A stretch of DNA of 64,000 nucleotides from Lachnospiraceae bacterium (GCA_017624235.1 JAGANL010000022.1:605-64604), one strand, 5' to 3'; positions 19,779 to 60,662 are shown, numbered from the stretch's first letter. Numbers and translations are program-made. The notes: generated by a model not told the origin, from the sequence alone.

Positions 19779-19779
19779 C

Positions 19780-37054: not shown

Positions 37055-37083
37055 ATTGTACCTTATTCCAACGGAAAGTACAA
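37055..37083 (-). promoter_or_regulatory. Predicted sigma-A promoter of the priming transferase / LCP operon
   Basis: Minus strand reads TTGTAC, a 17 nt spacer, then TACAAT. An A-rich tract lies upstream, and 72 nt separate the -10 from the start codon. Confidence 0.5.
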
Positions 37084-37127
37084 CTTAAACTTTTTTCTTT
37101 CCTGTTTTTTTACTTTTTAGAGGGGGC

Positions 37128-37436
37128 GCATCCCGGAGAATCACTGGCACTGCGCTAGCCCGGGCTGTCCCATGTCGTCTGCCTGCCATCCTTCGAAGAC
37201 GACAGACGGACTGGGGTTTTCTAAATAGCGCAGGGAAAACCTGAACAGGCGGTCGGGGCGGATTCCATGTGCATCCATGCACAGGAATCCTAAAATCGGC
37301 ATCCTTGCCGATTTTACCCTGGGTATTGAATGCGCTATTAAGAAAACACGCAGTCCTTCTGTAGGTCTTCGAAGGATGGCCGGCAGGCGGCATGGGACGC
37401 CCGGGATAGCGCAGTGCCAGTGATTCTCCGGGATGC
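37128..37436. repeat. Foldback element copy A: 309-nt imperfect palindrome with a two-hairpin core
   Basis: Outer arms 37128-37200 / 37365-37436 form 68 Watson-Crick pairs, 2 T-G pairs, 2 mismatches and 1 bulge; the first 30 bp are perfect. Inner arms are 37202-37232 / 37331-37362. Core hairpins are 37261-37289 and 37291-37316. Confidence 0.85.
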
Positions 37437-37452
37437 TTGTAATGACAGTCTG

Positions 37453-38499
37453 CTAGTGGAAAAATCCCAGTCTGCGTACTATGTTCCACCAGAGCATGCA
37501 CTGGATTCGCACGTAATGAAGCAGATGGTTCAAGCGGAACGGTATCTTATGTGCCCGGCCTTCTTTGGAAAGGCACAGGGTGATTCCCTGTCCAAGGCCC
37601 TTTAGATAGGGACCGGCCAAGTGCTTTTTTGCAAAATAGAGCAGCTTGATGAAATGACCGCACAGCAGGAACGGTAAATTCAGGAGAAGCTGTAGAAGCG
37701 GCATATTCTTGTAGGCCAGGTACACGCTGTTTCTGGCAGATAATCTCACCTTGAAGGGATTGTGTGCAGATCCTGTCGTTGCACTCCCGGCGTGTAAAAC
37801 GGCGGCTGACGGCTCATACTGATTCCGATAGCCGTGAATCTGTGCACGGTATGCCACATCGATATCCTCCAGATAAGCAAAATGGTTCTCATCCAAAAGA
37901 CCAAGCTGTTCAAAGACCTCTCTCCGGTAGATTGCCGCACCGCCGCAGGCTGCAAAAATTTCTGCAGGCTCCGCATAATCCGAGGCCGATCCTCCCTTGC
38001 CTCTGGCAAAGGCCCATCCGAGTGCACAGTAGAAGTCTCCGGCATCGTCCATTTTCTCCGGCTCTTTCATGGACAGCATTTTGGCACTGACAGAAAACAG
38101 CTTCCTGTCCGACGCAATCGTCCGGGTCAGACTGCTTACAAAGCCGGGCAGCACTTCCGTATCGTTGTTCAGCAGAAGAACATACGGCGTTTTTGCCTCC
38201 CGGATTCCGATATTGACCGCACCGCAGAAGCCGGTATTATGATCCAGTCGAATCTGGTGCAGCCCAATGTGTGGAAAATGCTCAGCCCGCTCTTTCTTCA
38301 GCTTCTCCACCACCTGTTCACTTCCGTCCGAAGAACCATTGTCAACGACCAGAATGTCAAATAAGGCATGAAGCTTATCTGACTCCATGCCGTTTTCTTC
38401 CTTACTCTCCCCTTTTATCAGGGAGCATATACACTTTTCCAGATATTGAATCCCGTTATAGTTCGGAATAATGATTGTTGTCTCTTTCATAGGCTCCAT
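37453..38499 (-). CDS. Family-2 glycosyltransferase
   Basis: 348 aa. TIIIPNYNG…VVDNGSSDGS…NNDTEV motifs. Confidence 0.85.
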   Translation of the reverse strand: MEPMKETTIIIPNYNGIQYLEKCICSLIKGESKEENGMESDKLHALFDILVVDNGSSDGSEQVVEKLKKERAEHFPHIGLHQIRLDHNTGFCGAVNIGIREAKTPYVLLLNNDTEVLPGFVSSLTRTIASDRKLFSVSAKMLSMKEPEKMDDAGDFYCALGWAFARGKGGSASDYAEPAEIFAACGGAAIYRREVFEQLGLLDENHFAYLEDIDVAYRAQIHGYRNQYEPSAAVLHAGSATTGSAHNPFKVRLSARNSVYLAYKNMPLLQLLLNLPFLLCGHFIKLLYFAKKHLAGPYLKGLGQGITLCLSKEGRAHKIPFRLNHLLHYVRIQCMLWWNIVRRLGFFH

Positions 38500-39905
38500 T
38501 CTTTTCGCGGATCATACAGAAGCTTCATGCCGTTTTGACGAAGCTTTTTTCCAAACAAAAGGCTGATGCTTTTCAGCTTTTCTTCTCCGATTCCCCGCTC
38601 TACAAGCTCCTTCAGAAACTGTGCCTGTCCTTCTGCACCCAGCTCTCCCACAAGGAAATTGACCTGTTTCTCTGCAAGCTCCGTCCCGCATGTTTCCCGG
38701 AAGGCTTCCTGCAAAAAGGGTACCGCTTCCTTTCGGATCCGTACAAAACGTATGTCCAATGCCTCCACATCCTGCTGCAGAACCGCCCGGTGCATATAAC
38801 CGGAAAACTGCTTCGGCATCCCTCCATAATAAAGGGTTCCGTCCTCATGCAGCGCTCCGCCTGCCACCCGGCCTCTTTGAAGTAACCTGCCGCCCACCGC
38901 ACCGACATCCCTTCTCTGCTGCAATACACCGTCTGCATATTCCACCCGGTAAAAGCCCAGATGCTTTTCATGACGCATACGAACCTTCAGGCCGATATCG
39001 GCACAGTAGTCATTGACCGCTTTTCTTCCGGCCTCATAGGCATACATTTTGCTTCCCGGATTTTCTGCAGTGGACTGCTCATGACAACGCCAGTGATAAA
39101 GCACCTTAGGTACATGGACAACGGGAGCGCCTTCCGACTTTCTTAACACCTGTAAAATCAAATCATAATCCTGCGCTCCGTCATATAAGGACCGGAAGCC
39201 CGTTTCTTTCAACTGTCCGGTTCGCACCATCAAAAAGTGGCAGATATAATTATTGGACAGAATCAGGTCATAATTAAAATCCACCTTCCTGTGCGGCTCA
39301 TAAAAACGCTCTCCCGCTCCGTCCGTCTTGTCCTCATCCGAATAGAGCATGACCGGCTCTACGCCCTTCTGCCGCTCCGCATACAGGGCTGCTGCCATCT
39401 CATACAGGGCATCCGCCGTCAAAAGGTCATCATGGTCGAGCAATCCGGTATACTCTCCGCACACTTCCTTTAAGCCTGCATTGGAATTGCCGGAAATACC
39501 AAGATTCTCAGACAGTCTCAGATAGCGTATTCTCTCATCCCCGCTCTGCGCTACCACCTGCTCCACCACATCCGAAGCAGAGGCGTCTGCGATGACCAGT
39601 TCAAACCACCTCCAGGTCTGCGCGAGAACACTTTCCAGCAGGGCCTGCATATAGCAGGCTTTGGTTTCATAAGCCGGAACAAGAATACTGAAGGTTACCG
39701 GCATTTTCTCATGCAGCTGATCTGCTTCCTTTTCCTGCCCCTGCCTTTCCTCCGGTGTCAGCGGATGCCACTCATAATCATCTCTTTTTTTCTGTAACAG
39801 CCGCTCCCATGCGGCATACATACCGCTCGACACACCGTTTTTCTGAATATACTTCACCGTACGGCGTACATTGGCAATATTGCAAATATTACTGATTTTT
39901 CCCAT
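38487..39905 (-). CDS. Glycosyltransferase (GT2 domain plus C-terminal extension)
   Basis: 472 aa. FSILVPAYETKACYMQALLESVLAQT…VIADASASD…DHDDLL. Confidence 0.8.
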   Translation of the reverse strand: MGKISNICNIANVRRTVKYIQKNGVSSGMYAAWERLLQKKRDDYEWHPLTPEERQGQEKEADQLHEKMPVTFSILVPAYETKACYMQALLESVLAQTWRWFELVIADASASDVVEQVVAQSGDERIRYLRLSENLGISGNSNAGLKEVCGEYTGLLDHDDLLTADALYEMAAALYAERQKGVEPVMLYSDEDKTDGAGERFYEPHRKVDFNYDLILSNNYICHFLMVRTGQLKETGFRSLYDGAQDYDLILQVLRKSEGAPVVHVPKVLYHWRCHEQSTAENPGSKMYAYEAGRKAVNDYCADIGLKVRMRHEKHLGFYRVEYADGVLQQRRDVGAVGGRLLQRGRVAGGALHEDGTLYYGGMPKQFSGYMHRAVLQQDVEALDIRFVRIRKEAVPFLQEAFRETCGTELAEKQVNFLVGELGAEGQAQFLKELVERGIGEEKLKSISLLFGKKLRQNGMKLLYDPRKEWSL

Positions 39906-39949
39906 CCTCTGATATTCTCCTGATGCACTCGTATAACGGTTCTGTTATA

Positions 39950-40624
39950 CTAGAAGTTTACTTCTCCGTCATGCGCAATCAGTGACACTCCTGTCACATC
40001 CTTTACTGCGGATACAGCCTTTAAAAGCTCATTCTGCTCCTTTACCTTCAGTTCAACAATAAAATCCGTTTTCCCACCGGAGGTATTTCTGGATTTGACA
40101 CTATAATGCCTGGTAAACTGTCCAATCTGCTTTAAGACCTCTTCCTCGCATTCCAGACTGCCTGCATTGACTACCAGCAGCATGGAAGCCATCCCGACCG
40201 GTGTCAGCTCCAGTGCAAACAGCCCCACCGTAATGACCAGTCCCGCTATGACGGCAATTTCAAACATACCTGCTCCACAGATAATGCCCGTACTGATTGC
40301 CCAGAACAGAAAGACCAGATCCTTCGGATCCTTCACCGCTGTACGGAAACGGATAATGGAAAGAGCTCCCACCATACCAAGCGAAATGACAAGGTTTGAC
40401 TGCATCGCCAGAATAATGCTGGCCGTCACGACCGTAATCAGTGCCAGCGAAATATTAAAGCTCTTATTATAGAAGGTCTTTTTGGCAGAAATATAATAGA
40501 TTGCAAAAATATAGAGAGCTAACAGTGTCGTAATTCCCAGTACCGTTACAATCTGCGCCATATTGATATTATTGCCCGAAAATCCTTCCAGTACGGATTT
40601 TTTTATCATATCCTGAAATGTCAT
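39950..40624 (-). CDS. DUF4956-family membrane protein (partner of VTC-domain proteins)
   Basis: 224 aa, about 4 TM helices, conserved …SIIRFRTAVKDPKDLVFLFWAI… block. 1-nt gap to the upstream VTC gene. Confidence 0.7.
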   Translation of the reverse strand: MTFQDMIKKSVLEGFSGNNINMAQIVTVLGITTLLALYIFAIYYISAKKTFYNKSFNISLALITVVTASIILAMQSNLVISLGMVGALSIIRFRTAVKDPKDLVFLFWAISTGIICGAGMFEIAVIAGLVITVGLFALELTPVGMASMLLVVNAGSLECEEEVLKQIGQFTRHYSVKSRNTSGGKTDFIVELKVKEQNELLKAVSAVKDVTGVSLIAHDGEVNF

Positions 40625-40625
40625 G

Positions 40626-41342
40626 TCAATTTACCTCGTTATACTTTCTGCATAAATAATATTTGGAAAAATTTGTCTGCCGCAAACGCCCCAGCTCCAG
40701 CTGCTTTTTCAGATAGGAGGGCAGAAATTCATCATATTTGACCTCCAGCACATGCTGCCCTGCCGGAAGAATCGGATACTCCCTGATATCCTTTTCAAAA
40801 AAACGTTCAAACTGAACCGACGATGTAATGTTCTGATCAAAGGTAATGCGTACATTCCCTTCCCGGCATACAAAGGGAACCCTCTCATACGTAACGATGA
40901 CCGCAGGCCTCAACAGCTTTGTATACATCAGTACCGCAAACTGCTGCAGCAACGGCGGATACCCGGAAAGCCTGTCGGCGTCTATGGAAAGCGGTATTCC
41001 CCTTAAAATCTGCTCTGCCTGCTCTTTGGTCAGCTCTGCCGACTCTTTGTGGGTCATTCCGTTTTTCTTGCTTTTTTTCTCTAAGGTAATCCTCCGATCG
41101 CTTGCCTCATAGATACGGATGCGGAACTTCGCCCGCGGATCCTCTCCGGATTCATTCTGATAAAAGCACGTATTCCGGTAATCATCCAGATAGACGCTCC
41201 GAATCTCATAGCTGCCCCGCTCCGAAGCATGAACATCCCTTTCAACCAGTCCCTCCAGCCTGTTCTTAAGAACCGCCAGTTCCCCGGCCGAAACCAGATA
41301 TTTGTATTCATGCCGGTACTGCAATTTTTCTTCCAATGCCAT
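40626..41342 (-). CDS. VTC-domain (triphosphate-tunnel, polyphosphate-polymerase-like) protein
   Basis: 238 aa. RHEYKY (ExK tunnel motif), FRIRIY, LEKKSK and LEVKYD are alternating charged beta-strands typical of CYTH/VTC tunnels. Confidence 0.7.
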   Translation of the reverse strand: MALEEKLQYRHEYKYLVSAGELAVLKNRLEGLVERDVHASERGSYEIRSVYLDDYRNTCFYQNESGEDPRAKFRIRIYEASDRRITLEKKSKKNGMTHKESAELTKEQAEQILRGIPLSIDADRLSGYPPLLQQFAVLMYTKLLRPAVIVTYERVPFVCREGNVRITFDQNITSSVQFERFFEKDIREYPILPAGQHVLEVKYDEFLPSYLKKQLELGRLRQTNFSKYYLCRKYNEVN

Positions 41343-41415
41343 TTCTCCCTGTCATATCGTTGGTGCTGCTGCACCACTTTTACTGCTATGCCGTTTTTTC
41401 CGCCATTTCACTTTT

Positions 41416-41850
41416 TCACTTGGACGGCTTCTTTTCCAGAAAAAGCTTTCTGGTCACAAAATTATAGACCATAACAATTCCGGTCGCAATAATCTTTCCG
41501 GCCATTTCCGCCGTGCCCCGGCTTATCATGTTCTGAAGTGCAGCCACATTATTATAAACACCATCTACACAGCCATAGATAATGATTTCATTCAAAATCA
41601 ACCCAATCACACTGAGCACTGCAAAAGCAATAAACTCCACTCTTTTGTCCAGATTCTCCCTGCGCTCAAACACGAATTTCATGCTCAGAATATAATTTGC
41701 AATCAAGGAAATCGTAAAACCAAAAAAAGTGGCCGCCATGTAATGAATGCCCACCACATAATTTAAAAACGAGAAAACAGCGAAGTCAATGATGGTGCTC
41801 ACTACACCAACCACACCGAATTTTAAAATCTGTTCGATTAGTTTTTTCAT
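41416..41850 (-). CDS. GtrA-family membrane protein
   Basis: 144 aa, 4 TM helices. …KFGVVGVVSTIIDFAVFSFLNY…. Confidence 0.8.
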   Translation of the reverse strand: MKKLIEQILKFGVVGVVSTIIDFAVFSFLNYVVGIHYMAATFFGFTISLIANYILSMKFVFERRENLDKRVEFIAFAVLSVIGLILNEIIIYGCVDGVYNNVAALQNMISRGTAEMAGKIIATGIVMVYNFVTRKLFLEKKPSK

Positions 41851-41883
41851 ATTGTATAACCTTTTCTATCGACTATTTTTCTG

Positions 41884-41927
41884 GAAAACAACAACAGGGA
41901 AGAATGCCCCGTAGGACATTCTTCCTG
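41884..41927 (-). terminator. Rho-independent terminator after the phosphosugar mutase gene
   Basis: CAGG(G)AAGAATG / CATTCTTCCTG stem, 11 bp with one bulged G (41895-41927). On the minus strand it is followed by TTGTTGTTTTCC. Confidence 0.65.
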
Positions 41928-41970
41928 TCAGTTTTCATTACCACAGAAGCCTTTTGAAAGGTATGCCGGA

Positions 41971-43695
41971 TTAATCCAGCTTAGATTTCAAAGCCTCCGT
42001 CAAAGCCTCCACCTTGCTCTTTGCATCCTCTAAGCTGGTGCCCTTTACACCCATATAGAACTTAATCTTCGGCTCTGTACCGGACGGACGGGCACAGCAC
42101 CAGGAATCGTTTGTCAGGTCAAAATAGAGTACATTGGATTTCGGAAGGCCTGTTTTTCCTTCTGCTCCTGTCTCGTAGTTTACAACCTTATCCAGCTCAT
42201 AATCACGGAACTCACGTACCTTCAGATCTCCGAATTCCTTCGGCGGGTTCGCACGAAGCTTATCCATCATAGCTGCAATCTGCCTGGAACCTTCGATTCC
42301 CTTTAAGGTAATGGTGTACATATCCTCTTTGAAATATCCATACTTTTCATAGATGGCAAGCATCTGATCCCATACGGTGATGCCCTGCTTCTTGCACCAT
42401 GCAGCTACCTCACACAGACACATAACTGCTACGACAGCATCCTTATCTCTTGCATGGGTTCCTGCCAGACAGCCATAGCTCTCTTCCAATCCAAATACAT
42501 AATGGTTGCTTCCGGTCTGTTCAAACAGCTTAATCTGCTCTCCAATGTACTTAAAGCCGGTCAGTACCTCGATCTGCTTCACGCCGTAATCTGCTGTCAG
42601 TCTGTCGGACAGATTGGTCGTAACGATGGTCTTAACCAGTGCGGGATTCTCCGGCATGGTTCCGGTCGCGGTTCTCTCTCTTAAAATGTACTCAGCAATG
42701 AGCATACCGGACATATTTCCGGTAAACGGAACGTATTCGCCGCTTTTGGTATCCAGTGCATAGATGCCCAGTCTGTCCGCATCCGGGTCGGTTGCCAGAA
42801 CGATGTCCGCATTCTTTTCCTTTGCCAGCTTCAACGCCAGGGTAAATGCCTTCGGGTCCTCCGGGTTCGGATATTCCAGAGTTGTGAACTTCGGATCCGG
42901 CAGCTCCTGCTCCGGCACCACATATACGTTTTTGAAGCCAAGCTCGGAAAGGATTCTTCTGACCGGTACATTTCCGGTTCCGTTGAACGGAGAATAAACG
43001 ATCTTAATCTCATCTGCTACTTCTTTGATAATATCCGGGTGAATGATCTGTTTCTTCAACTCTGCCATATACGCATCGTCGATTTCTTTTCCGATGATGT
43101 TGTAAAGACCTGCCGCCATGGCATCCTCTTTGCTCATGGTCTTTACGGTATGATAATCAGTTACGGCCTTGACCTCTCCGATAATCTCTTTATCCTTCGG
43201 AGCCGTTACCTGAGCGCCGTCCTCCCAGTATACCTTGTAGCCGTTGTATTCCGGCGGATTGTGGCTGGCTGTAATTACGATACCGGAGATACAGCCCAAT
43301 GTGCGGAGAGCAAAGGAAAGCTCCGGGGTCGGACGAAGTGCGTCAAATACATACGCCTTGATGCCGTTCGCTGCCATACAGCGTGCTGCTTCATCGGCAA
43401 ATTCAGGGGACATGAAACGGGAATCGTATGCAATTGCAATACCCTTGTCCTGTCCGTTCTGCTTGATAATGTAGTTAGCAAGACCCTGTGTCGCCTTACG
43501 TACCGTATAAATATTCATGCGGTTTGTACCTGCGCCGATGACACCTCTGAGTCCGCCTGTACCAAATTCCAGTTCCTTGTAGAAACGGTCTTCGATTTCC
43601 TTTTCATCGTTACGGATTGCAAGTAATTCATTTTTGGTCTCCTGGTCAAAATAATCATCCTCTAACCAGAATTTAAACTGTTCCTGATAGCTCAT
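41971..43695 (-). CDS. Phosphoglucomutase/phosphomannomutase family enzyme
   Basis: 574 aa. Phosphoserine loop TASHNPPEYNGYK; Mg site DPDADR. Confidence 0.9.
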   Translation of the reverse strand: MSYQEQFKFWLEDDYFDQETKNELLAIRNDEKEIEDRFYKELEFGTGGLRGVIGAGTNRMNIYTVRKATQGLANYIIKQNGQDKGIAIAYDSRFMSPEFADEAARCMAANGIKAYVFDALRPTPELSFALRTLGCISGIVITASHNPPEYNGYKVYWEDGAQVTAPKDKEIIGEVKAVTDYHTVKTMSKEDAMAAGLYNIIGKEIDDAYMAELKKQIIHPDIIKEVADEIKIVYSPFNGTGNVPVRRILSELGFKNVYVVPEQELPDPKFTTLEYPNPEDPKAFTLALKLAKEKNADIVLATDPDADRLGIYALDTKSGEYVPFTGNMSGMLIAEYILRERTATGTMPENPALVKTIVTTNLSDRLTADYGVKQIEVLTGFKYIGEQIKLFEQTGSNHYVFGLEESYGCLAGTHARDKDAVVAVMCLCEVAAWCKKQGITVWDQMLAIYEKYGYFKEDMYTITLKGIEGSRQIAAMMDKLRANPPKEFGDLKVREFRDYELDKVVNYETGAEGKTGLPKSNVLYFDLTNDSWCCARPSGTEPKIKFYMGVKGTSLEDAKSKVEALTEALKSKLD

Positions 43696-43844
43696 ATGTT
43701 ACCTCCATATCCTTATGCTGTTTGATTTTGCCTATATCTCTACGCAGGCAGAAGCCTTGATGCTTCTCCTGCGGCAGATTCTTATTTTTGCTGCATTCTG
43801 TCGTTCGAAAAGCCCGTCTGATGCACCGTCACCCGCTTGTCCAG

Positions 43845-45815
43845 CTATACCTGCAGGGTAAAATCGCTGTGATCCAGGGAAAAGTTCGGATTGTAATACG
43901 GATCTCCCTTGGCCAGCTCCTCCTTCCATTTTTCCCGAAAATGCGCTGACTCCTCATTGTAGCGGACAGCCTTCTCATCCTTGTCATCCAATCCTCTGGA
44001 CTGTGATTCGAAATGATACAGCTCGCAATAGGGATTGAACACGTTGAGATACCCCAGTCTGCGCAGACGCAGACAGAAATCCACATCATTTAACGCTACG
44101 GCAAAGCTCTCATCCAGACCGCCCAGCTTGTCATACAGGGACTTCTTCACCAACAGGCAGGCCCCGGTCACTGCTGTGACATCCTGTGCATAGCAGAGCC
44201 TTCCCATATATCCGACATTTTCATAGTTCACTTTATAATGCGTATGTCCTGCAGTGCGATGTGCGCCCAGTCCAATCACGATTCCGGCATGCTGAATCGT
44301 CTTGTCCGGATAATAGAGCTTTGCTCCTACCGCACCTACGTCCTCACGCTGCCCATACATCAAAAGCTCCTCCATCCAGTTGACAGAGATAACCTGAGTA
44401 TCGTTATTCAAAAGCAGGATATATTCCCCATCCGCAAAGCCTGCTCCGAAATTATTGATCCTGGAATAATTAAATTCTCCTTCATAAGTCACGATGCGGA
44501 TTTTCGGATGCCTGCCCAGCTCTTCATAGTACTCTTTGATTTCCGAAGTCGTACTGTTATTTTCCACCACGATAATCTCATAGTTTTCATAAGTGGACTT
44601 ATCCAGAATGGAACTGATGCAGCGGCTCAAATCCTCATAATGATCCTTATTGGCAATGATAATCGAAATTTTGGGTGCAGCCGTCAGCGCATATTTGATA
44701 CGGAAAATCGTCTCAAAAGCACGGCTGCTGATAATTTCAAAATCTTTATAGCCCAGACTTGTCAAATGATCTGCTACAGCGCCCCTGGCCGCCTCAATCG
44801 CATAGGTCTTGGCGCTGATATCCGATGCCACGCTGCCCGGATGGGAACGCCAGTAATACAAAAGCTTCGGAACATGCACGACCTTTTTGGCTCTGGTCGT
44901 CAGCCTGAGAATCATATCATGATCCTGACTGCCGTCAAACCTGGAACGGAACAACTCTGTGCCCTCCAGCAGTTCTCTGGAAAATACACTGAAATGGCAA
45001 ATATAATTGTTGGCCCTGAGCGTATCAATCGCATAGTCCGGCTTGAAATGCAGCGTAATCATCTTATCGATATTGCCGTTTTTAAAGGTTGCCTCATCAC
45101 AATAAATATAATCGGCTCCCTGCTCGGCTATGACCTTGCGGTATTCAAACAGCACGCAGGGATGCAGAATGTCATCGTGATCAAACAGTCCGATATAATT
45201 TCCGGTGGCCATTTTATAGCACTCATTCGTATTGCCGGAAATACCCTCGTTGCTTTTTAATTTTTCATAGACGATACGTGCATCCTTTTCCTGATACTGC
45301 TTACAGATCTCACCTACATAAGCATGCTCTGCATCGGAGCCATCCGCCAGACAAAGCTCCCAGTCCTCATAAGTCTGTGCCACAACGGAATCGATCATTT
45401 CCGTCAAAAACTGCTTCGGTGTATTATAAAGAGGCACTAAAATACTGAATTTCACCTCGCCGGGGAATTTCGTGCTGCGCTGTTCTTCTATCTGCTCCTT
45501 TGTCGGGAAGCTTGCTCTGCCGTGCTTCTTCTGCGCCTTCTTCTCAATCGCCTTGCTCTTTAGCTTACGTGCAATTCCCTTTGGATTGCCGTAACGGACA
45601 ATGCGGTCCTTTGTTCGGATGATCAGGTGCATCAGTGACCTTGCCGGTTTACTGATCTTCCAGAGCGGATTATTCTTGATGCGCTTCAGTTTAAAATCCA
45701 GATCCGCAATCTGTGTTTCCGCATCCGCAAGCCTGCCTGCCAGCACACTGTTTTTCTGCTTTTCCTTCTCATAGGCCGCTTTATAATATTCAAGTAACTC
45801 TGTTTCGTTGTTCAT
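43845..45815 (-). CDS. Bifunctional glycosyltransferase (two GT2 domains, N-terminal coiled coil)
   Basis: 656 aa. FSILVPLYNT…LADGSD…DHDD and ISIIIANKD…VVENNS…NNDT. Confidence 0.82.
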   Translation of the reverse strand: MNNETELLEYYKAAYEKEKQKNSVLAGRLADAETQIADLDFKLKRIKNNPLWKISKPARSLMHLIIRTKDRIVRYGNPKGIARKLKSKAIEKKAQKKHGRASFPTKEQIEEQRSTKFPGEVKFSILVPLYNTPKQFLTEMIDSVVAQTYEDWELCLADGSDAEHAYVGEICKQYQEKDARIVYEKLKSNEGISGNTNECYKMATGNYIGLFDHDDILHPCVLFEYRKVIAEQGADYIYCDEATFKNGNIDKMITLHFKPDYAIDTLRANNYICHFSVFSRELLEGTELFRSRFDGSQDHDMILRLTTRAKKVVHVPKLLYYWRSHPGSVASDISAKTYAIEAARGAVADHLTSLGYKDFEIISSRAFETIFRIKYALTAAPKISIIIANKDHYEDLSRCISSILDKSTYENYEIIVVENNSTTSEIKEYYEELGRHPKIRIVTYEGEFNYSRINNFGAGFADGEYILLLNNDTQVISVNWMEELLMYGQREDVGAVGAKLYYPDKTIQHAGIVIGLGAHRTAGHTHYKVNYENVGYMGRLCYAQDVTAVTGACLLVKKSLYDKLGGLDESFAVALNDVDFCLRLRRLGYLNVFNPYCELYHFESQSRGLDDKDEKAVRYNEESAHFREKWKEELAKGDPYYNPNFSLDHSDFTLQV

Positions 45816-45898
45816 TCTGACTCCTTAGCTTTCACAGGAACGGCTCTTTTCCCTCTGTTTTGTCCAATTCCCGTATTATTGTATCACATCCTGCCGGA

Positions 45899-47860: not shown

Positions 47861-47887
47861 GTCCTGCTTGTCCCTTTTCTTTTCTAT

Positions 47888-50047: not shown

Positions 50048-50129
50048 GTTCCCATATCCTTCCTGCCATCCCGTTTCCCTTTGCCGGATGCTTCCGACCT
50101 TCTCCGGGATTGTCCTGTTTCTACATTCG

Positions 50130-51416: not shown

Positions 51417-51436
51417 ATCACGTTGTTCCTTCCACA

Positions 51437-52450: not shown

Positions 52451-52464
52451 ACAGTAACCTTACT

Positions 52465-53031
52465 CTACTTCGCCTTCCTGCTCTCCGTATATTCACGGAT
52501 TCCGCCCCATTTCGTATCCTTCTCGGAAAGAATCAGTTCCATTCCTTCCGGGATTGGCCACTCTACGCCGATGTCGGGATCGCTCCATAAAAGTCCGCCT
52601 TCATCGTTCGGATGATAAAAATCTGTACATTTATAGCAGAACTCCGCATAATCCGACAGCACCAGAAAACCATGCGCAAAATTTTTCGGAATGAAGAACT
52701 GCTTCTTATTTTCTTCCGAAAGCAGCACTCCGAACCACTTTCCGTATGTAGCCGAGCCTTCCCTCAAGTCCACCGCTACATCAAATACCTCACCGCGCAC
52801 GACGCGCACCAGCTTATCCTGTGGAAATTCCTTCTGAAAATGCAGTCCGCGCAGCACGCCCTTTTTGGACGCGGACTGATTATCCTGCACAAACTGCATA
52901 TCCAGACCGGCCTCCTTAAAGTCGTTATAATTATAGGTTTCCATAAAATATCCTCTGGCATCTCCGAAAACTGCCGGTGTAATAATCTTAAGACCTTCAA
53001 TCTCACATGTTTCTACTGTAATCTTTCCCAT
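52465..53031 (-). CDS. rfbC: dTDP-4-dehydrorhamnose 3,5-epimerase
   Basis: MGKITVETCEIEGLKIITP…GDARGYF…LRGLHFQ…; 188 aa. Confidence 0.93.
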   Translation of the reverse strand: MGKITVETCEIEGLKIITPAVFGDARGYFMETYNYNDFKEAGLDMQFVQDNQSASKKGVLRGLHFQKEFPQDKLVRVVRGEVFDVAVDLREGSATYGKWFGVLLSEENKKQFFIPKNFAHGFLVLSDYAEFCYKCTDFYHPNDEGGLLWSDPDIGVEWPIPEGMELILSEKDTKWGGIREYTESRKAK

Positions 53032-53124
53032 TTGCTCCTCTTTCTCCCTTTCCTTGATTTCTATCACTGGTTGGCGGCTCTTTTTGCCCCGTTAACCGAT
53101 TTCCGGTCGGTGAGTGACACTATA

Positions 53125-54504
53125 TTAATAGCCCAGATAGCTGATATTTAAATCCACCCGGCCCTTCATGCCGTCGATACTTCCATTCGAGGTATACTGC
53201 CAGATCTGATATTTTCCGGTATAGAGCGGATCACTGCGATACTCTGCAAGCCAGGTCACATAATCCGACAGTTCAGAAGCGGTCAGATTATGGTACCACC
53301 AGTTGCGGCTCGCATAGACACCAGCCTTCCTTCCGGCGCTCTCAATCGTCTCACAGAAGGCACGGCACACCGCTGTACGCTCCCGTACACCAAGTCCGTC
53401 TGCCCGTCCGTTTCCTCCGGCTCCTTCCGTATCAATGAAAACCGGATAATCCAGATTGTAGTCCCGGCACAGGCTGATGACCATACTGGCTTCCTCCACA
53501 GCCTCTACCTCATTCGTGGCCTGTGTAAAGAAATAAACACCTATGGAAATACCGTTCGCTTTAGCTCCCTCTATATTTTTGATAAAATAGGGATCCTCTA
53601 CCAGCACGCCCGAAGACGAACCGCGGTAGCCACAGCGGATGATAGCAAAATCCACCCCTGCATTCTTCACCTTTGCCCAGTCAATCTCTCCGTTCCATTT
53701 AGACACATCGATACCGACTCTGGCTGTGCCGTCCGGTATCTTTAATGCCGTTTCTTCCGTACCATCGATATCCGTCCCGGCATCCTTTACCCCGGTATCT
53801 TCTTTGGCGGCATCGATTTCATCCTCCGTCTTGATCAGGGCCGAAATATTATCAATAATCCGATATTCCAGTTTGTCCTTGACCTTCACATCCAATGCGG
53901 CATCCGTGACCTCATAGCCTTCCATCGGCTGCAGGGTCAGCGCATAATCCCCCGCCTTCAGACCGCCTATATAAATGATACCGTCCTGATCCAGATCCTT
54001 ATACCCTTCATCCGGCTCTGCCGTCTCTCCCGTACCGGACAACGTCACATAAAAGCTCTGTCCCTTTACGGTTCTACCGCTTCCGTCCAAAATCAGGATG
54101 CGCAGATCCTTTTCCACCGACGTAGCCATCATCGTAAGCGTACTGCTTTGCTTCTCCAGCATAGCCAGATAGCCCGGCTTTTCCGGATCAAAAAAGGTCT
54201 CATCATACTGAAAAGCTGACAGATCGGAACCGATAATCATGCCGTTTTCATCCAGCTTCGACGGTGCTGACGTATCAGCCTGCGTGCTGCCGCCGGCCTG
54301 AGCTGTGGCTCCACTCTGACCCGACTGCTCACCTGTGCCATTTTGCCCTGCCACGCCGGCCTGAGCTGCTCCGCTTTGTTCTTCCCCGACAGCATTCCAT
54401 AAGGAAGCGGTTTTGCCCTGATTCACTGCAACGACCGTGACAGCCGCCAGAATCAAAACGGACAATGCCAGCAAAACGGCTCTTCGCTTTACCTTAGAGT
54501 CCAT
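53125..54504 (-). CDS. Membrane-anchored GH25 muramidase (lysozyme) paralogue, short form
   Basis: 459 aa. TM helix, Gln/Gly/Ala-rich linker, beta-sandwich domain, then GH25 [32 protein letters not shown]… with the ending …[12 protein letters not shown] shared with the long paralogue. Confidence 0.85.
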
Positions 54505-55363
54505 TTGCGACCTCTACCAGATATTTTCCGTAATTCGTTTTCATAAGCGGCTCTGCCAGCTTCAAAAGCTGCTCTTTGGTAATGAAGCCGCGTTTATAAG
54601 CAATTTCTTCAATGCAGGATACATAAAGTCCCTGTCTCTTCTGAACAGCCGATACAAAATCTGCAGCATCCAGCAGGGAATCATGATTGCCGGTATCCAG
54701 CCATGCAAAGCCTCTTCCCATCGTCTCTACATGAAGCGTTCCCCGCCTTAAATATTCGTTATTGATACTCGTAATCTCGATTTCACCACGCGCAGACGGC
54801 TTCACATTTCGTGCAATTTCTACGACATCATTGTCATAAAAATAGAGTCCCGGAACCGCATAGTTGCTCTTTGGATGCTCCGGCTTCTCCTCAATCGAAA
54901 GTGCCTTGCCGCTCTCATCAAATTCCACAACACCGTATTCCCTCGGATCTCTGACATAGTAGCCAAAGATGGTTGCTCCTTTTTCTCTGGAAGCAGCTTC
55001 TCTGAGCACCTTCGAAAAGCTCTGACCATAAAAAATATTGTCACCCAGCACCAGCGCCACGCTGTCCTCTCCGATAAAATCCGCACCGATGATAAACGCG
55101 TCAGCCAACCCTCTCGGGTACTCCTGTACCGCATATTCCAGACGCATGCCAAGCTGGCTGCCGTCTCCCAGCAGCTCCTCAAATACCGGAAGATCTCTCG
55201 GTGTCGAGATAATAAGCACCTCTCTGATGCCTGCTAACATCAGTGTGGACAGTGGATAATAAATCATCGGTTTGTCATATACCGGCATAATCTGCTTGGA
55301 AATGGCCTTGGTCAGCGGATAAAGCCTCGTACCGCTTCCGCCTGCTAAAATAATACCCTTCAT
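54494..55363 (-). CDS. rfbA: Glucose-1-phosphate thymidylyltransferase
   Basis: [18 protein letters not shown]…; GGAGGA RBS before ATG 55363. Confidence 0.95.
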
Positions 55364-55442
55364 TCGTAAATCCTCCAAATTCTAAAACGCCAAAAAGAAG
55401 GCTTACTCATATTGCTATGATAACCCTTCTTTTAGGCAGTTC

Positions 55443-56525
55443 TTATTTTGTATGATACATGTCTTCGTAGTACTTCTGATAATCTCCGCTTGTCACATTC
55501 TTCATCCATTCCTCATGCTCGAAGAACCACTGAATCGTCAGGCGGATGCCGTCCTTAAACATCGTTTCCGGCTCCCAGCCAATCTCAGATTTGATTTTGT
55601 CCGGTGCAATGGCATATCTTCTGTCATGTCCCTTACGATCCTCCACATAAGTAATCAGATCTCTGGACACCAATGCTTTACGAGGGTCGGAATCCGGAAG
55701 CATCTCCTGCAGCGTATCCAGAATAATGTGAATAATTTCAATGTTCTGCTTCTCGTTATGTCCGCCTACGTTGTAGGTTTCAAACAGCCTTCCCTTTTCC
55801 TGTACCATATCAATGGCCTTGGCATGATCTTCTACATATAACCAGTCACGCACATTCTTACCGTCTCCGTAGACCGGAAGCTTTTTGCCCTGCAGCGCAT
55901 TGTTGATAATGAGCGGAATGAGCTTCTCCGGGAACTGATACGGTCCGTAGTTGTTCGAACAGTTCGTAATATTTGCCGGAAATTTATAGGTGTCCATATA
56001 GGCCTTTACCAGCATGTCCGAGGATGCCTTGCTTGCCGAGTAAGGGCTGTGCGGTGCATACGGTGTCGTCTCGTAGAAATAGCCGCCGTCCTCCTCTAAG
56101 GAACCATAGACCTCATCGGTGGAAACATGGAGGAACTTCTTGCCTTCCCTGAAGCTTCCGTCCGGCAGCTCCCAGGCTTCCTTGGCACAGTTTAACATGA
56201 CAGCCGTTCCGAGCACATTTGTCTGTACAAATACCTCAGGATGCCTGATACTGCGGTCTACATGGCTCTCTGCCGCAAAGTGCACAACTCTGTCGATATC
56301 GTTCTCTGCAAAGATTTTACGGATGGCTTCCTTATCACAGATATTTGCTTTCACAAAGGTATAATTGTCTCTGTTCTCTACTTCTTTTAAGTTTTCCAGA
56401 TTACCGGCATAGGTCAGCGCATCCACGTTGATAATACGGATGTCATTGTCATATTTTTTGAACATATAGTGAATATAATTGGAACCGATAAATCCGGCGC
56501 CGCCTGTTACAAGATAGGTTCTCAT
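55443..56525 (-). CDS. rfbB: dTDP-glucose 4,6-dehydratase
   Basis: 360 aa. GGAGFIGSN, STDEVYG, YSASKA. Confidence 0.95.
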   Translation of the reverse strand: MRTYLVTGGAGFIGSNYIHYMFKKYDNDIRIINVDALTYAGNLENLKEVENRDNYTFVKANICDKEAIRKIFAENDIDRVVHFAAESHVDRSIRHPEVFVQTNVLGTAVMLNCAKEAWELPDGSFREGKKFLHVSTDEVYGSLEEDGGYFYETTPYAPHSPYSASKASSDMLVKAYMDTYKFPANITNCSNNYGPYQFPEKLIPLIINNALQGKKLPVYGDGKNVRDWLYVEDHAKAIDMVQEKGRLFETYNVGGHNEKQNIEIIHIILDTLQEMLPDSDPRKALVSRDLITYVEDRKGHDRRYAIAPDKIKSEIGWEPETMFKDGIRLTIQWFFEHEEWMKNVTSGDYQKYYEDMYHTK

Positions 56526-56587
56526 AAAATGCTGTCCTCCATTTTAAACAGATATTTTTTCTTTCGTATATCATATCATAAATTTCC

Positions 56588-59500
56588 CTAATAGCCAAGA
56601 TAACTTACATTCAAGTCAACATTTCCGCTGATGCCGTTGATTTTTCCCTTGGACGTATACTGCCACATATCATAACGGGTAGCCTTATAGGTCGGCTGCG
56701 CCGCATACTGTGCCAGCCACAGCTTATAGCCGGTCAGGCTGCTCGTATTCATCTTCGTTTCAAACCAGCTCTTATTCGCATAGATGCCTGCCGTATAGCC
56801 GCCGTTCTGGATCGTCTTACAGAAAGCATTTGCTACAGCGGTTCTTGTATTTTTATCAATCCGGTCACCGCGTCCGCCGCTGCCCTCAATATCGATAAAT
56901 ACCGGATAGGATATCTTGTAGCCCTTAATCAGGCTCAGCGTCATGGAAGCCTCTTCTACTGCTTCCACCTCATTGACCGCCTGGGAGAAGAAGTAGATGC
57001 CCACCTTCAATCCGGCCGCTGTCGCTCCCTGAATATTCGTCTTGAACTTCGGGTCCACAATCATCGCACCGGAGGAAGAACCACGGTAGCCGCAACGGAT
57101 GATGACATAGGAAACACCGGAATTTTTCACGGCATTCCAATCAATGCTGCCGTTCCATTTGGAAACATCAATGCCCATATTGCCGGAGCCCTTCATCAGC
57201 GCACCGTCACTGTCAAAGTTGTATTTCATGCCCTGGATGACCTGCTCGCCTGTAACGCGCTTGCCGTCCTTGGTGTAATAGTAGGTCTTTCCGTCTATTG
57301 TCTGCCATCCGGTATACTTATATTCCACATTTTTTGCAAGAATATAGAACTTGGATGCCGTATAGTAATCCGCCAGAGTCGCCTCGACAAACTTACCGTC
57401 CTTATTTTTGATATAGACCTGATTACCATCATTATCCTTTAGCTTGGTCGTCGTATCCTTCTTCGGATTCAGGCGGACGGTAACCTTGCAGGTCGCTTTC
57501 GCAATTTCTTTATTGTCACGCTTGACTACCACAGACACATTCGCTGTTCCGGCAGCCACTCCGGTGATCGTGCCGGTCTTCTTGTCATCCGACGCCTTGA
57601 CTGTCGCAAGCTTTGTATTATCGGATACCCATTCGATGACATCACCGTTTACCGTATTCTCGATCGTAGCCTTTAATTCTCCGGTCAGCTCGGTAAAGAC
57701 AGTCAGCTCGGATTTACTCAGAGTCAATTTCACATCAGTGTTGCTGACCGTGACCTTACAGGTCGCTTCCACCGTCTTGTTCGTTTTCGTCGTAACCTTG
57801 GCCGTAATGGTAGTCTCGCCTGCTGCAACAGCCTTGACCGTACCGTCACTTGCTACGATTGCGATCTTATCGTTGCCTGACGTCCATTCCGTCTTTGCGA
57901 TCTCGTGGCCTGCTGAAATGCTGACAGACAGCTTACTGCTCTCATTGACCTTCAGCGCAAGGGTTCCCGGATTCATCGTCAGCTTCAGTTCGCTTTCAGT
58001 AACGGTTACAGTACAGGATGCTGATTTACCGGAATCCACCTCGGATGTCGCGGTTACCGTTGCTGTACCGGCTCCTACGCTGGTCAATGTACCGCCGGAC
58101 ACCTTTACCACGCTTTCATTACTGCTTTTCCATGTCACGGCCTTGCTTGGCGCTGTGCCCGTACTTCCCGACAGGGTAACAATCGCCTCCAGCTGGAAGG
58201 TCGTACCACCGGAGGTCAGAGTCAGAGTGCTGTGATTGAGCTTCACAGAATCAATCTTATACGGATCCTGTGGAGCAACCGGCTGAGATTCACTTTCAGA
58301 TGGTTTTGTGCTCTCACTTTCGGAAGGATTCGTACTCCCGCTCTCCGACGGTTTTGTGCTTTCACTCTCAGACGGTTTTGTGCTTTCGCTCTCAGACGGT
58401 TTTGTGCTTTCGCTCTCCGATGGATTGGTACTTGCACTTTCGGACGGCTTTGTGTCTCCACTTTCCGATTCCGTTGTATTGCCATTTTCACCATTCGTCT
58501 GTGACAATCTTAAGAAGCGTCCTGCTGCCGCACTCACCGTAAGCGGGTCTGTGATCTTGTCCTTCTTTAACTCCTCATATTCCCCTTCGGTCGCACTTCC
58601 ACTTCCGGAAATCGGTGTCTTCGTGGACTCTACCCACTCTACCGTATCCTTCAGGGCCGGCGCTGTCTCCGGTTCCTGAATCGCCGTATCCTCCACCGCT
58701 GCATTGACCTCGGCCTCCGTCTTGACCTCGTCAATGACATCAATCTTCACATACTCAATCTTATCCTTTACCTTGACGCTCTGTGTACCGGTATAATATT
58801 TATAATCCTTTATAGCATCGATTTCCTTTAACGTCACCTTATAATTGCCCGGTGTCAGGTCCTTTTTATAAATCACACCGTCTTTATCATCATCCGTCCA
58901 CGTAGTAGTCTTGTTATCAGGCCCCACTACCTCTACTTCAAATGCGATGCCGGATATGAGACGATTCGTCGAAGAATTGACGAACTTGATCTTCAAGTCC
59001 TTCTCTACCGAGGTCATATTAAAGCCGATCGCTTCTTCCTTCTCTTCCGCTTCTTCCTCCGTTTCCATCTCGGTTTCTTCCTCAAACAGGGCATCGATTT
59101 CTGCCGCAGAAGCGCTTGCATCCGCCATGGCGACCAATCCGCTCTCGCCGCCTACACCAAGGGTATCCAGCTTATCGCCCACCTCATAAAAGGCGGCCAC
59201 CTGTGCATCCACCGCCTTGGCGCTTGCATAAACAGAACAGGTCACCATAACGATTACCATCACAATTGCTCCGGTTGCTGCCACAAGACGATCCATCGCT
59301 GTCATAGACACGATATACTGACGCAGATTTTCCAAAAATGCCAGAAAAGCATTCTCTTCCTGTCTGCGATGGCCTTTTTTACGATTTCGACCGCTGCCTG
59401 CACGATTCCATCCGGCGCTCAGCTCTTCGTCTCCATAATAGGCTTCATCATCGCTCTCATATTCTTCGCTGTAATAGCTTTCGCCATCCTCGTCCTCGTA

Positions 59501-60058
59501 GATCTCTTCCTCGTAATATTCCTCTCCGTCATACGCTTCGTCGGAATAATACTCTGTATCACCAACCGGAATGAACTCCATGGTTTCCATGGACACCTCC
59601 GGCTCTACGCCTTCGTCTTCAGCCAGATAGGCATAATCTGCCTTTTCCTCTTCCGCAAAGTATCTGCCGTCTACGCTGCCATCTTCCTCTTCGGCATAAT
59701 ATTCACCGTCTCCGTTATAGTCTTCCTCTTCGGCATAATACACCCCATCTCCGTTGTAGTCTTCCTCTTCGGCATAATACTCACCGTCTCCGTTATAATC
59801 TTCCTCTTCGGCGTAATACTCACCGTCTTCGCTGTAGCCTTCTCCGTCAGCGTAATATTCGCCATCTTCGCTGTAGCCTTCTCCATCAGCGTAATATTCT
59901 CCATCTTCGCTGTAGCCTTCTCCATCAGCGTAATATTCTCCATCTTCCTCATAGTACTCTATGTCATCAGTCTCAAATGTATCGTATTCTTCATCAAAAT
60001 TTCTGTTCCTTTTCGCGGCATGAAACCACTTTCCGAAACCGTGATTCTTCCTTCCCAT
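56588..60058 (-). CDS. Large membrane-anchored GH25 muramidase: acidic Tyr-rich cytoplasmic repeats, TM helix, Ser/Glu/Pro repeats, Big_2-type Ig domains, GH25
   Basis: Start ATG 60058 (AGGGAGG RBS). TM helix LVAATGAIVMVIVMVTCSVYA. Several Ig-like repeats (…TVTATSE…, …TITAKVT…). C-terminal [32 protein letters not shown]. Confidence 0.85.
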   Translation of the reverse strand: MGRKNHGFGKWFHAAKRNRNFDEEYDTFETDDIEYYEEDGEYYADGEGYSEDGEYYADGEGYSEDGEYYADGEGYSEDGEYYAEEEDYNGDGEYYAEEEDYNGDGVYYAEEEDYNGDGEYYAEEEDGSVDGRYFAEEEKADYAYLAEDEGVEPEVSMETMEFIPVGDTEYYSDEAYDGEEYYEEEIYEDEDGESYYSEEYESDDEAYYGDEELSAGWNRAGSGRNRKKGHRRQEENAFLAFLENLRQYIVSMTAMDRLVAATGAIVMVIVMVTCSVYASAKAVDAQVAAFYEVGDKLDTLGVGGESGLVAMADASASAAEIDALFEEETEMETEEEAEEKEEAIGFNMTSVEKDLKIKFVNSSTNRLISGIAFEVEVVGPDNKTTTWTDDDKDGVIYKKDLTPGNYKVTLKEIDAIKDYKYYTGTQSVKVKDKIEYVKIDVIDEVKTEAEVNAAVEDTAIQEPETAPALKDTVEWVESTKTPISGSGSATEGEYEELKKDKITDPLTVSAAAGRFLRLSQTNGENGNTTESESGDTKPSESASTNPSESESTKPSESESTKPSESESTKPSESGSTNPSESESTKPSESESQPVAPQDPYKIDSVKLNHSTLTLTSGGTTFQLEAIVTLSGSTGTAPSKAVTWKSSNESVVKVSGGTLTSVGAGTATVTATSEVDSGKSASCTVTVTESELKLTMNPGTLALKVNESSKLSVSISAGHEIAKTEWTSGNDKIAIVASDGTVKAVAAGETTITAKVTTKTNKTVEATCKVTVSNTDVKLTLSKSELTVFTELTGELKATIENTVNGDVIEWVSDNTKLATVKASDDKKTGTITGVAAGTANVSVVVKRDNKEIAKATCKVTVRLNPKKDTTTKLKDNDGNQVYIKNKDGKFVEATLADYYTASKFYILAKNVEYKYTGWQTIDGKTYYYTKDGKRVTGEQVIQGMKYNFDSDGALMKGSGNMGIDVSKWNGSIDWNAVKNSGVSYVIIRCGYRGSSSGAMIVDPKFKTNIQGATAAGLKVGIYFFSQAVNEVEAVEEASMTLSLIKGYKISYPVFIDIEGSGGRGDRIDKNTRTAVANAFCKTIQNGGYTAGIYANKSWFETKMNTSSLTGYKLWLAQYAAQPTYKATRYDMWQYTSKGKINGISGNVDLNVSYLGY
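58291..58482. repeat. In-frame 24-bp tandem repeats (8 units) encoding SESTKPSE-type linker
   Basis: Units start at 58291, 58315, 58339, 58363, 58387, 58411, 58435 and 58459. The middle units are near-identical (…ctcagacggttttgtgcttt…). Confidence 0.85.
59683..59955. repeat. In-frame 39-bp tandem repeats (7 units, two subtypes) encoding GEYYAEEEDYNGD / GEYYADGEGYSED
   Basis: Units start at 59683, 59722, 59761 and 59800 (type I) and at 59839, 59878 and 59917 (type II). The period is exactly 39 bp. Confidence 0.9.
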
Positions 60059-60131
60059 CTTTACCTCCCTGGATGCCTGCATCAGCCTCCCGCTGCCTGC
60101 GGACTGCCCATGCCAGTAACAATTCTGTAAC

Positions 60132-60160
60132 ATTATAGCATCCGCTCCCCTTCACTTCAA
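60132..60160 (-). promoter_or_regulatory. Predicted sigma-A promoter at the head of the glycopolymer locus
   Basis: Minus strand reads TTGAAG, a 17 nt spacer, then TATAAT. 73 nt separate the -10 from ATG 60058. Confidence 0.55.
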
Positions 60161-60214
60161 GGTATTTCGGGGATTTCCATTTTTTGCTTCTTTATTATCA
60201 TGTGGCATCGCAGC

Positions 60215-60487
60215 CATTATCCGGTCGGCGGTGGTTGGGGCTCCGGTCCGCCGCAGAAAATGTCAGACCTGCAGGTGGAGTGAGAGTTTTCTTAATGGAG
60301 CTTTCGAAAAAGCAGGGGAAAATCGGCACGGATGCCGATTTTAGGATTTCACGTGCAAGGATGCACATGAAAGCCGACCCGAACGGTTGTCGCATCCTTC
60401 CTGCTCCATTTAGAAAACTCCAATCCACATGCGGTCTGACATTTTCTGCTGCGGACCGGAGCCCCAACCACCGCCGACCGGATAATG
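60215..60487. repeat. Foldback element copy B: 273-nt imperfect palindrome, core homologous to copy A but in inverted orientation
   Basis: Outer arms 60215-60269 / 60433-60487 pair at 54 of 55 positions. Inner arms are 60270-60301 / 60403-60432. Core hairpins are 60319-60342 and 60347-60372. Confidence 0.85.
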
Positions 60488-60662
60488 ACCACTACGTTTT
60501 CTATATATTAGCTGTTCATCATCACAAGACGGCGGAAATTGCAGCTGGCGCAGGCTGATCCATTCCCCTTTTCGTCAAAATGATTGACTTTTCTATGCTT
60601 TAGTGGCATATTTTTGTAGTATAAGGGTTTTGTCAAGCTGTGTAAAATGGGAGGAAAATAAT

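Follow-up and report, generated by a model that had tools for sequence, protein, structure and literature searches.

Introduction

The TwoAYGGAY motif (Rfam family RF01731) was described from human-gut metagenomes, Clostridiales and gamma-proteobacteria (Weinberg et al., 2010, Genome Biol 11:R31). It comprises two adjacent hairpins with AYGGAY loops and a closing stem, P1, for which 24 bp were quoted in 2010 and which was termed "often very large" in the supplement of the same paper. The hypothesis of a CsrA-like reading of the loops was published in 2015 (PMC4333381). Here, we analyze two long foldbacks, A and B, in a stretch of 64,000 nucleotides from the metagenome-assembled genome (MAG) of a Lachnospiraceae bacterium (GCA_017624235.1, JAGANL010000022.1:605-64604; the whole stretch is referred to as the window). 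Both foldbacks are almost certainly TwoAYGGAY copies and new members of this known, functionally orphan family, and they are likely to be dispersed repeats that were inserted next to genes for polysaccharide assembly.

Several other described systems resemble the two foldbacks in part. Miniature transposable elements with inverted repeats (MITEs) and repeats of the repetitive extragenic palindrome (REP) type, such as Correia, RUP, ERIC and REPIN, are likewise small, non-coding, hairpin-forming, multi-copy and intergenic, are often located at the 3' ends of genes, vary in presence or absence between strains and can seed rearrangements. In contrast to these repeats, A and B have neither an identified target-site duplication nor a partner transposase and do not have common termini, and the conservation of TwoAYGGAY is highest in the central structured core and not at the ends. 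The small RNAs CsrB, RsmY and RsmZ also present GGA motifs on hairpin loops that follow the CANGGANG consensus and are spaced suitably for the CsrA dimer, whereas a TwoAYGGAY unit offers only two or three such sites and is a dispersed repeat instead of a single regulated gene. The invertons of surface-polysaccharide loci share with A and B that inverted repeats flank a segment, here of ~165 bp, beside glycan genes. However, the segments within A and B contain no internal promoter, have no adjacent invertase and were found in a single orientation in the assemblies, and the nearby promoters lie outside of A and B and are conserved without them.

Results

Identity and structure of foldbacks A and B

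A scan of the whole window against Rfam at the gathering threshold returned exactly two matches, both to RF01731. The matches extend over all 168 positions of the model and score far above the gathering score of 43 bits (Table 1), and therefore the statement in the initial annotation of this DNA that the foldbacks fit no known RNA family was wrong. The conserved unit of ~165 nt consists of P1 closing two tandem hairpins with the loops CA-N-GGAUG. In each copy, one of the two loops has A instead of Y at position 2 and thus reads AAGGAU instead of AYGGAY. P1 is extended to ~100 bp in A and ~75 bp in B, which is much longer than the stem quoted in 2010, but the gut members of the seed alignment are equally extended. 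The host, which belongs to the Lachnospiraceae within the Clostridia, and the position relative to 5' untranslated regions (5'-UTRs), which is not fixed, are further traits that A and B share with described family members.

Table 1. Positions of foldbacks A and B, their structural parts and adjacent features in the window.
Feature	Position	Strand	Basis or remark
Foldback A, solo TwoAYGGAY element with extended closing stem	37128..37436 (309 nt)	(-), Rfam-sense	fold
A left outer arm	37128..37200	.	copy-specific, 65% GC, partner 37364-37436; no homologue in B or any other locus compared
A right outer arm	37364..37436	.	ends 17 nt from GT2 stop codon (37453)
TwoAYGGAY conserved unit of A (P1 and two hairpins)	37201..37363	(-)	RF01731, 81.9 bits, model positions 1-168/168
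A hairpin 1	37292-37315	(-)	loop AAGGAU
A hairpin 2	37260-37290	(-)	loop AUGGAU
Foldback B, solo TwoAYGGAY element with extended closing stem	60215..60487 (273 nt)	(+), Rfam-sense	fold
B left outer arm	60215..60267	.	copy-specific, 62% GC, partner 60435-60487
B right outer arm	60435..60487	.	Logan contig L056 breaks 30 nt inside
TwoAYGGAY conserved unit of B	60268..60435	(+)	RF01731, 77.0 bits, model positions 1-168/168
B hairpin 1	60319-60342	(+)	loop ACGGAU
B hairpin 2	60347-60372	(+)	loop AAGGAU
Stretch beside B, no counterpart in relatives' spacers	60488..60583 (96 nt)	.	spacer alignment
Bac_transf promoter, pre-existing, TTGTAC-17-TACAAT	37055..37083	(-)	kept in all relatives without A
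Promoter of the 1156-aa Big_2/GH25 wall-protein gene, pre-existing, TTGAAG-17-TATAAT	60132..60160	(-)	kept in relatives without B

The foldbacks were located by an inverted-repeat search, and their stability was expressed as a z-score by comparing the RNA minimum free energy (MFE) with that of shuffled sequences. The MFE was -238 kcal/mol for A (shuffles -117 +/- 5.6; z = -21.6) and -207 kcal/mol for B (shuffles -97 +/- 5.5; z = -20.1). The outer arms of A comprise 73 nt per side with 93% complementarity, and the inverted-repeat search resolved A into two nested pairs of arms, one of 38 nt with 97% and one of 41 nt with 85% complementarity. The outer arms of B comprise 53-55 nt with 98% complementarity. 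The two copies lie 22,778 nt apart. When the plus strand of B was aligned with the reverse complement of A, 61/70 positions (87%) were identical over the two hairpins, and a weaker homology extended to AGACCT(A/G)CAG...GTTTTCTTAAT on one side and to ATTTAGAAAAC...GTCTG on the other. The homologous region corresponds in extent to the Rfam model. Outside of it, the arms of A and B are unrelated over 73 nt per side in A and 53 nt in B, and no matches to the arm sequences were found elsewhere in the loci compared. It had been recognized correctly from the sequence alone that A and B are homologous and mutually inverted, that their arms are unrelated between the copies yet self-complementary within each of them, and how the hairpin loops read. 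Open reading frames (ORFs) of 138 codons (37085-37501, minus strand) and 124 codons (60184-60558, plus strand) cross A and B, both on the Rfam-sense strand, and are probably a by-product of the GC-rich palindromes.

Genomic context and empty sites in relatives

All genes between 31.6 and 60.1 kb of the window are located on the minus strand and belong to a cell-wall polysaccharide pathway, comprising rmlABC, a Wzm/Wzt ABC exporter, glycosyltransferases, phosphoglucomutase (PGM), the initiating sugar transferase Bac_transf and an LCP ligase. A does not mark the edge of this gene array but lies inside it, since genes for Bac_transf, LCP and GT2 continue outside of A at 33.1-37.0 kb. The initial annotation described the foldbacks as bracketing about 22.8 kb of glycan genes, which is accurate for the distance between the copies, but not for the genes, which extend beyond A.

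For comparison, orthologous loci from two related lineages were used, the first being a biogas Clostridiales MAG and the second coming from pig and other gut samples. Gene order, orientation and promoters are the same in both lineages, but A and B are absent. The spacer between GT2 and Bac_transf is 470 nt long in the window compared to 126 and 200 nt in the relatives, which lack A (L043-L054), and the spacer between the wall-protein and the zinc-ribbon gene is 604 nt long compared to 241 and 228 nt in the relatives, which lack B (L057-L063). Both sites thus show the presence/absence polymorphism known from MITEs, with empty sites in two lineages. A copy identical to B is present in a second assembly (L055), and apart from this copy, Rfam scans of 13 related Lachnospiraceae loci detected no more TwoAYGGAY elements. 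The GC content of the outer arms (0.62-0.65) contrasts with that of the flanking spacer (0.35-0.40). Because GC-rich arms are found in spacers of 35-40% GC and the orthologous sites are empty, A and B are probably strain-specific insertions. The 96 nt at 60488-60583 may have arrived together with B, which would make the insert larger than the foldback. Copying of the arms from the local flanks by template switching was considered and rejected, as the arms are GC-rich and unlike the DNA of the empty sites.

The promoters next to the two foldbacks are also present in the relatives without foldbacks (Table 1). On the B side, the true start of the wall-protein gene is at 60058, behind a GGAGG ribosome-binding site, and not at 60133. 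With this start, the promoter geometry given in the initial annotation was borne out: the -35/-10 hexamers, with spacers of 17 nt, lie at a distance of 44 nt from the foldback and 72 nt from the start codon for A, and of 54 nt and 73 nt, respectively, for B. In contrast, the proposed link of the foldbacks to the promoters and the glycan locus was not upheld, because the promoters are kept in relatives without foldbacks and the leaders, 72-73 nt long in the window, have different lengths there. Both the 22.8-kb bracket and the 72-73-nt spacing to the promoters appear to be coincidental. The chance of the observed divergent order of A and B is 1 in 4. What had looked like a mystery of this locus is thereby removed, and for the foldbacks an annotation as RF01731 copies and strain-specific insertions is appropriate, rather than one as regulators of the polysaccharide locus.

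TwoAYGGAY elements in other genomes

To place A and B within the family, the seed alignment of 2010 was taken with 200-nt flanks. In five Sanger-era human-gut members, the stems run at least 55-60 nt past the motif, and the outer part of the stem is copy-specific and matched in its own partner arm. Judged from these sequences, long, copy-specific and self-complementary arms are a normal trait of the TwoAYGGAY family. A scan of gut metagenomes with one exact core pattern, which was derived from the gut members of the seed, detected at least 123 copies in at least 120 contigs (L091-L210), including at least six copies within one Lachnospira assembly. The host was named as Lachnospira by a neighboring protein and belongs to the same family as the MAG of the window.

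Among the matches listed, the element of human-gut Lachnospira is a foldback of ~341 nt whose right end is sharp and adjoins at least 25 different flanks, and 67 unique copies have long, copy-specific, self-complementary outer stems. A head-to-head partner with 72% identity accompanies the element in 51/119 of these listed copies. The divergent pair constitutes a unit of ~745 bp with the terminal inverted repeats ATTGTTGTTTAAT / ...TTAAACAACAAT and is sited in AT-rich DNA, for example at L143 9544-10234. Both halves of such pairs reached 116-136 bits with the Rfam model, and the order was (-)(+) in 5/5 pairs checked. Of 64 distinct sites among the matches listed, half have the element adjoining a convergent gene at its stop codon, and only 9 have it in front of a co-directional gene. 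The apparent covariation of the outer arms in the listed copies is accounted for by two arm haplotypes, present in ~45 and ~14 copies and distinguished by double changes at ~8 pairs, while six further listed copies have hybrid, mismatched arms. The same left flank was joined to different right flanks across metagenomes (L163, L140, L130, L178, L164, L133), indicating that Lachnospira copies recombine with each other, and this pattern suggests chromosomal rearrangements with breakpoints inside the repeats. The center of the Lachnospira composite is formed by a hairpin, GGGCGGAATTGTGCG-loop-CGCACAATTCCGCCC, in which the loop reads CTTTA or TAAAG in roughly equal numbers among the matches listed. 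At L143 10234-11424 (minus strand), the terminal repeat of an element contains a TAA that touches or overlaps a gene's stop codon; the product of this gene has 396 aa compared to 585 aa in the representative of its cluster, and some Lachnospira insertions may truncate genes.

Outside of the Lachnospiraceae, at least five TwoAYGGAY copies were found in Psychromonas, and in Pseudomonas two copies form a divergent pair beside PhrS (L031 1600-2230). In both genera, a GGTTAC...GTAAC module is located 3' of true RF01731 members, as is the case in a composite repeat of ~340 nt that occurs in at least 20 copies in Dyella tabacisoli (L001-L040 set). The Dyella composite consists of a TwoAYGGAY-like two-hairpin unit, variable runs of TTGNNN hexamers and a GGTTAC(T/C)n...(A/G)nGTAAC hairpin. 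Short hairpins topped by GGCA-N-GGATGCC or GCATGGATGC were observed in tandem arrays in MAGs of Planctomycetota, Actinomycetota and Bacteroidales and in some viral contigs (L005, L009, L017, L019, L083, L084, L088, L089); these arrays look like multi-GGA (CsrB-like) RNAs or protein-binding iterons. The composite of Dyella and Rhodanobacter and the hairpin arrays of other phyla, which were detected in a scan with a two-hairpin pattern, score below the RF01731 threshold. The hairpin-1 pattern common to A and B had no match in a metagenome scan, a BLAST search with B against plasmid and phage collections gave no match, and two scans of viral contigs returned only coding repeats or unrelated hairpin arrays.

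Taken as a family, TwoAYGGAY behaves as a non-coding, non-autonomous dispersed repeat of the MITE or REP kind. Among the roles that had been listed for A and B, the non-autonomous foldback element fits best, with sites that are empty in relatives and gut Lachnospira copies that are dispersed and have defined ends. The orphan motif thereby gains a natural history, with presence and absence at orthologous sites, a ~341-nt foldback, a ~745-bp paired unit, a preference for the 3' ends of genes and signs of recombination between copies.

Possible RNA strand and resemblance to CsrA sites

Wobble pairs had been taken to place the element on the plus strand in A and on the minus strand in B. This evidence proved weak: in a strict arm-to-arm alignment, only two true G.T mismatches were present in the outer arms of A and none in those of B, the remaining differences being transversions and indels, and the G-U counts of 6 vs 0 and 4 vs 2 stem from re-pairing in the MFE structure. 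The Lachnospira copies favor the Rfam strand instead. In the 67 unique copies mentioned above, again among the matches listed, 307 G-U cells are opposed to 88 A-C cells on the Rfam strand, where the cells count sequences and not events, and at least five G-U cells occurred at 13 positions compared to 5 positions with at least five A-C cells. Hairpin 2 additionally contains a fixed U.G pair in the listed copies. As the cells count sequences instead of events, the support for an RNA that is read from the Rfam strand is suggestive only.

The CA-N-GGAUG loops fit the CsrA/RsmE consensus by sequence match. The initial annotation had mentioned such a resemblance for the strand opposite to the one that it favored. 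The two loop GGA motifs are ~28 nt apart, with the AGGA of the junction between them, and this distance lies within the range of 10-63 nt that is expected for a CsrA decoy with at least two loop GGA motifs.

Discussion

We consider it likely that A and B each represent a solo copy of the TwoAYGGAY repeat, were inserted separately and are not a designed part of the glycan locus. The two copies would have arrived one by one in the AT-rich spacer DNA of a single Lachnospiraceae strain, A landing between the upstream GT2 gene and the Bac_transf promoter and B between two divergent promoters, so that the bracket would be the chance outcome of two insertions. As no transposase or reverse transcriptase (RT) was found nearby, the mobilizing enzyme would have to act in trans. 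With the GT2 stop codon only 17 nt away, read-through from the operon of this gene very probably yields a transcript of the Rfam-sense strand of A; for B, transcription of this strand is not obvious. The transcript of A would form a ~100-bp duplex topped by two CsrA-type GGA sites, or three if the AGGA of the junction is included, and this RNA could bind CsrA or be cut by RNase III, either as a side effect or as an adopted function.

A number of observations weigh against the interpretation as inserted dispersed repeats. Neither a target-site duplication nor a flanking direct repeat is visible at A or B, and the exact ends of the two elements cannot be fixed because the spacers of the relatives are too diverged. 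The target-site duplication of the Lachnospira elements is ambiguous as well, their target being AT-rich. The Lachnospira composite has terminal inverted repeats, but A and B do not combine shared terminal inverted repeats with a duplication as MITEs do, and their outer arms have nothing in common, unlike ordinary MITE copies within one genome. No cognate transposase or autonomous element was found in the window or in the loci compared, and the two copies in the 64-kb window are the only ones known from the host MAG. With three lineages and no root, a loss in the relatives instead of an insertion is formally conceivable. Finally, a preprint of 24 September 2026 (10.64898/2026.09.22.753630), as far as the frequency of terms in it allows a statement, appears to tie TwoAYGGAY to reverse transcriptases and cDNA.

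At the RNA level, the elements might act as CsrA decoy, as RT partner or as RNase III site. The first of these functions has been proposed before (PMC4333381), and in the present locus the foldbacks would be RNAs that sequester or recruit CsrA, with two GGA hairpins bridging the dimer, and tune the expression of Bac_transf (A) and of the 96-aa zinc-ribbon gene (B) in cis. The match of the loops to the CsrA/RsmE consensus, the orientation of the Rfam-sense strand, which is co-directional with the next downstream gene for both copies, the excess of G-U cells on this strand among the listed family members and a weak promoter-like site at 60174-60201 (plus strand) just upstream of B are in line with this function. 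However, both downstream genes have a conserved promoter of their own between element and gene, and therefore the element would lie outside of their normal leader. As the relatives manage without the elements, and only 9/64 of the listed Lachnospira sites precede a co-directional gene while half of them abut a convergent 3' end, we regard such a CsrA-related function as possible but rather unlikely. A role as transcription insulators, RNase III sites or stabilizers of 3' ends between operons, comparable to REP and Correia elements, could be derived from the very stable helices, from the position of A between the stop codon of GT2, 17 nt away, and the promoter that follows, and from listed Lachnospira copies that are only a few nucleotides away from the stop codon of a convergent gene. 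A U-tract follows neither foldback, no terminator-like site was called at them, the same junctions lack the elements in the relatives, and at the site of B, flanked by divergent promoters, an insulator would have nothing to separate, which makes this role doubtful. It is more doubtful still that a reverse transcriptase uses the RNA as template or partner and that A and B are orphan or retro-copied units. The lead for this idea comes from the term counts of the above-mentioned preprint, where twoAYGGAY has 52 and reverse transcriptase 14 occurrences (both terms stand in the abstract as well), and cDNA and DRT have 24 and 18, respectively. It is opposed by the lack of any RT domain among 50 ORFs of the window, including all long ones, that were scanned against Pfam, the lack of an RT beside the Pseudomonas copy (L031) and a crude screen for RT motifs, which detected none in ~1 Mb around the at least 123 Lachnospira copies and none in ~1.7 Mb of loci overall. 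The natural history of the family described above narrows what is needed to decide between a selfish repeat, a CsrA decoy and an RT partner.

At the DNA level, the mutual inversion of A and B had raised the question whether they are recombination substrates that flip the 22.8-kb glycan segment in the manner of phase variation. The near-identical Lachnospira copies with hybrid arms and swapped flanks show that family members do recombine, but A and inverted B share no uninterrupted match of more than 19 nt, and the identity of 87% extends over only 70 nt. Moreover, the orientation is the same in the independent assembly and in all relatives, an inversion would part genes from promoters outside of the segment, no invertase is adjacent, and the serine recombinases at 15.4-19.8 kb are of the large integrase type. 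With no inversion seen and the same synteny in the relatives, we consider a flip of the 22.8-kb segment highly improbable. A smaller switch would result if the arms of each foldback flipped the asymmetric core of 165 nt and thereby changed the expressed strand. The near-perfect inverted repeats of 53-73 bp around this core would be suited for it, and small palindromes do flip or re-insert in these genomes, as is seen from the spacer hairpin of Lachnospira, whose loop occurs in both orientations (CTTTA and TAAAG), and from an unrelated ~150-nt element that a relative carries, in either orientation, at the site of B. Since B was found in a single orientation in two assemblies and 5/5 Rfam-checked Lachnospira pairs had the (-)(+) order, we regard core flipping as very unlikely, and short-read data cannot show it either way because contigs break in the arms. 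This breakage of contigs at palindromes and the origin of the window from a MAG might lead to the suspicion that the foldbacks are assembly artefacts of short reads. They are, however, contig-internal with unique flanks on both sides, their arms carry mismatches and indels, the junctions were recovered in independent runs, with the flanks and the initial 21-30 nt of the arms, and the same architecture is found in Sanger-era contigs and many other assemblies, so that an artefact is scarcely credible. Such elements are scarce in short-read assemblies because the contigs break 21-30 nt into the arms, and the TwoAYGGAY family is consequently under-counted in MAGs.

In addition to the interpretation of A and B as separately inserted solo copies, a broader view of the family may be put forward, although we judge it as speculative and unlikely to hold in full. 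TwoAYGGAY could be the conserved heart of a mobile foldback class that is spread across phyla, in which stems evolve in concert or are swapped and the usual form is the divergent pair with terminal inverted repeats. These elements would shuffle gut chromosomes by recombination, and the transcribed core would be kept for CsrA titration or for supply to an RT. On this view, the arrangement A(-)...B(+), which has the same relative order as the Lachnospira pairs, would represent a pair that was split or whose members were seeded independently.

Neighboring features of the window

On the far side of B, the window encodes a conserved protein of 96 aa (60663-60953, plus strand) with two CxxC pairs, which is zinc-ribbon-like and has no Pfam match. 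This protein is widespread in the Lachnospiraceae, with 109 clusters, and its gene was located beside EamA-pair genes in all related loci examined. At the site orthologous to that of B, the pig-gut relative contains the different element of ~150 nt mentioned above (L064 500-700; L066 1-110; L065, L067-L069). In this element, a closing stem of GTGCCAAAAG/CTTTTGGCAC surrounds three hairpins, one of which shows compensatory differences; the element had no match in Rfam and was found in opposite orientations in different samples. Small palindromic insertions seem to have a hot spot in the spacer in which B resides. More distant from the foldbacks, at 15456-19829 (minus strand), three consecutive large serine recombinases with Resolvase, Recombinase and Zn-ribbon domains are encoded beside two-component and peptidase genes, and this region is probably the end of an integrated mobile element.

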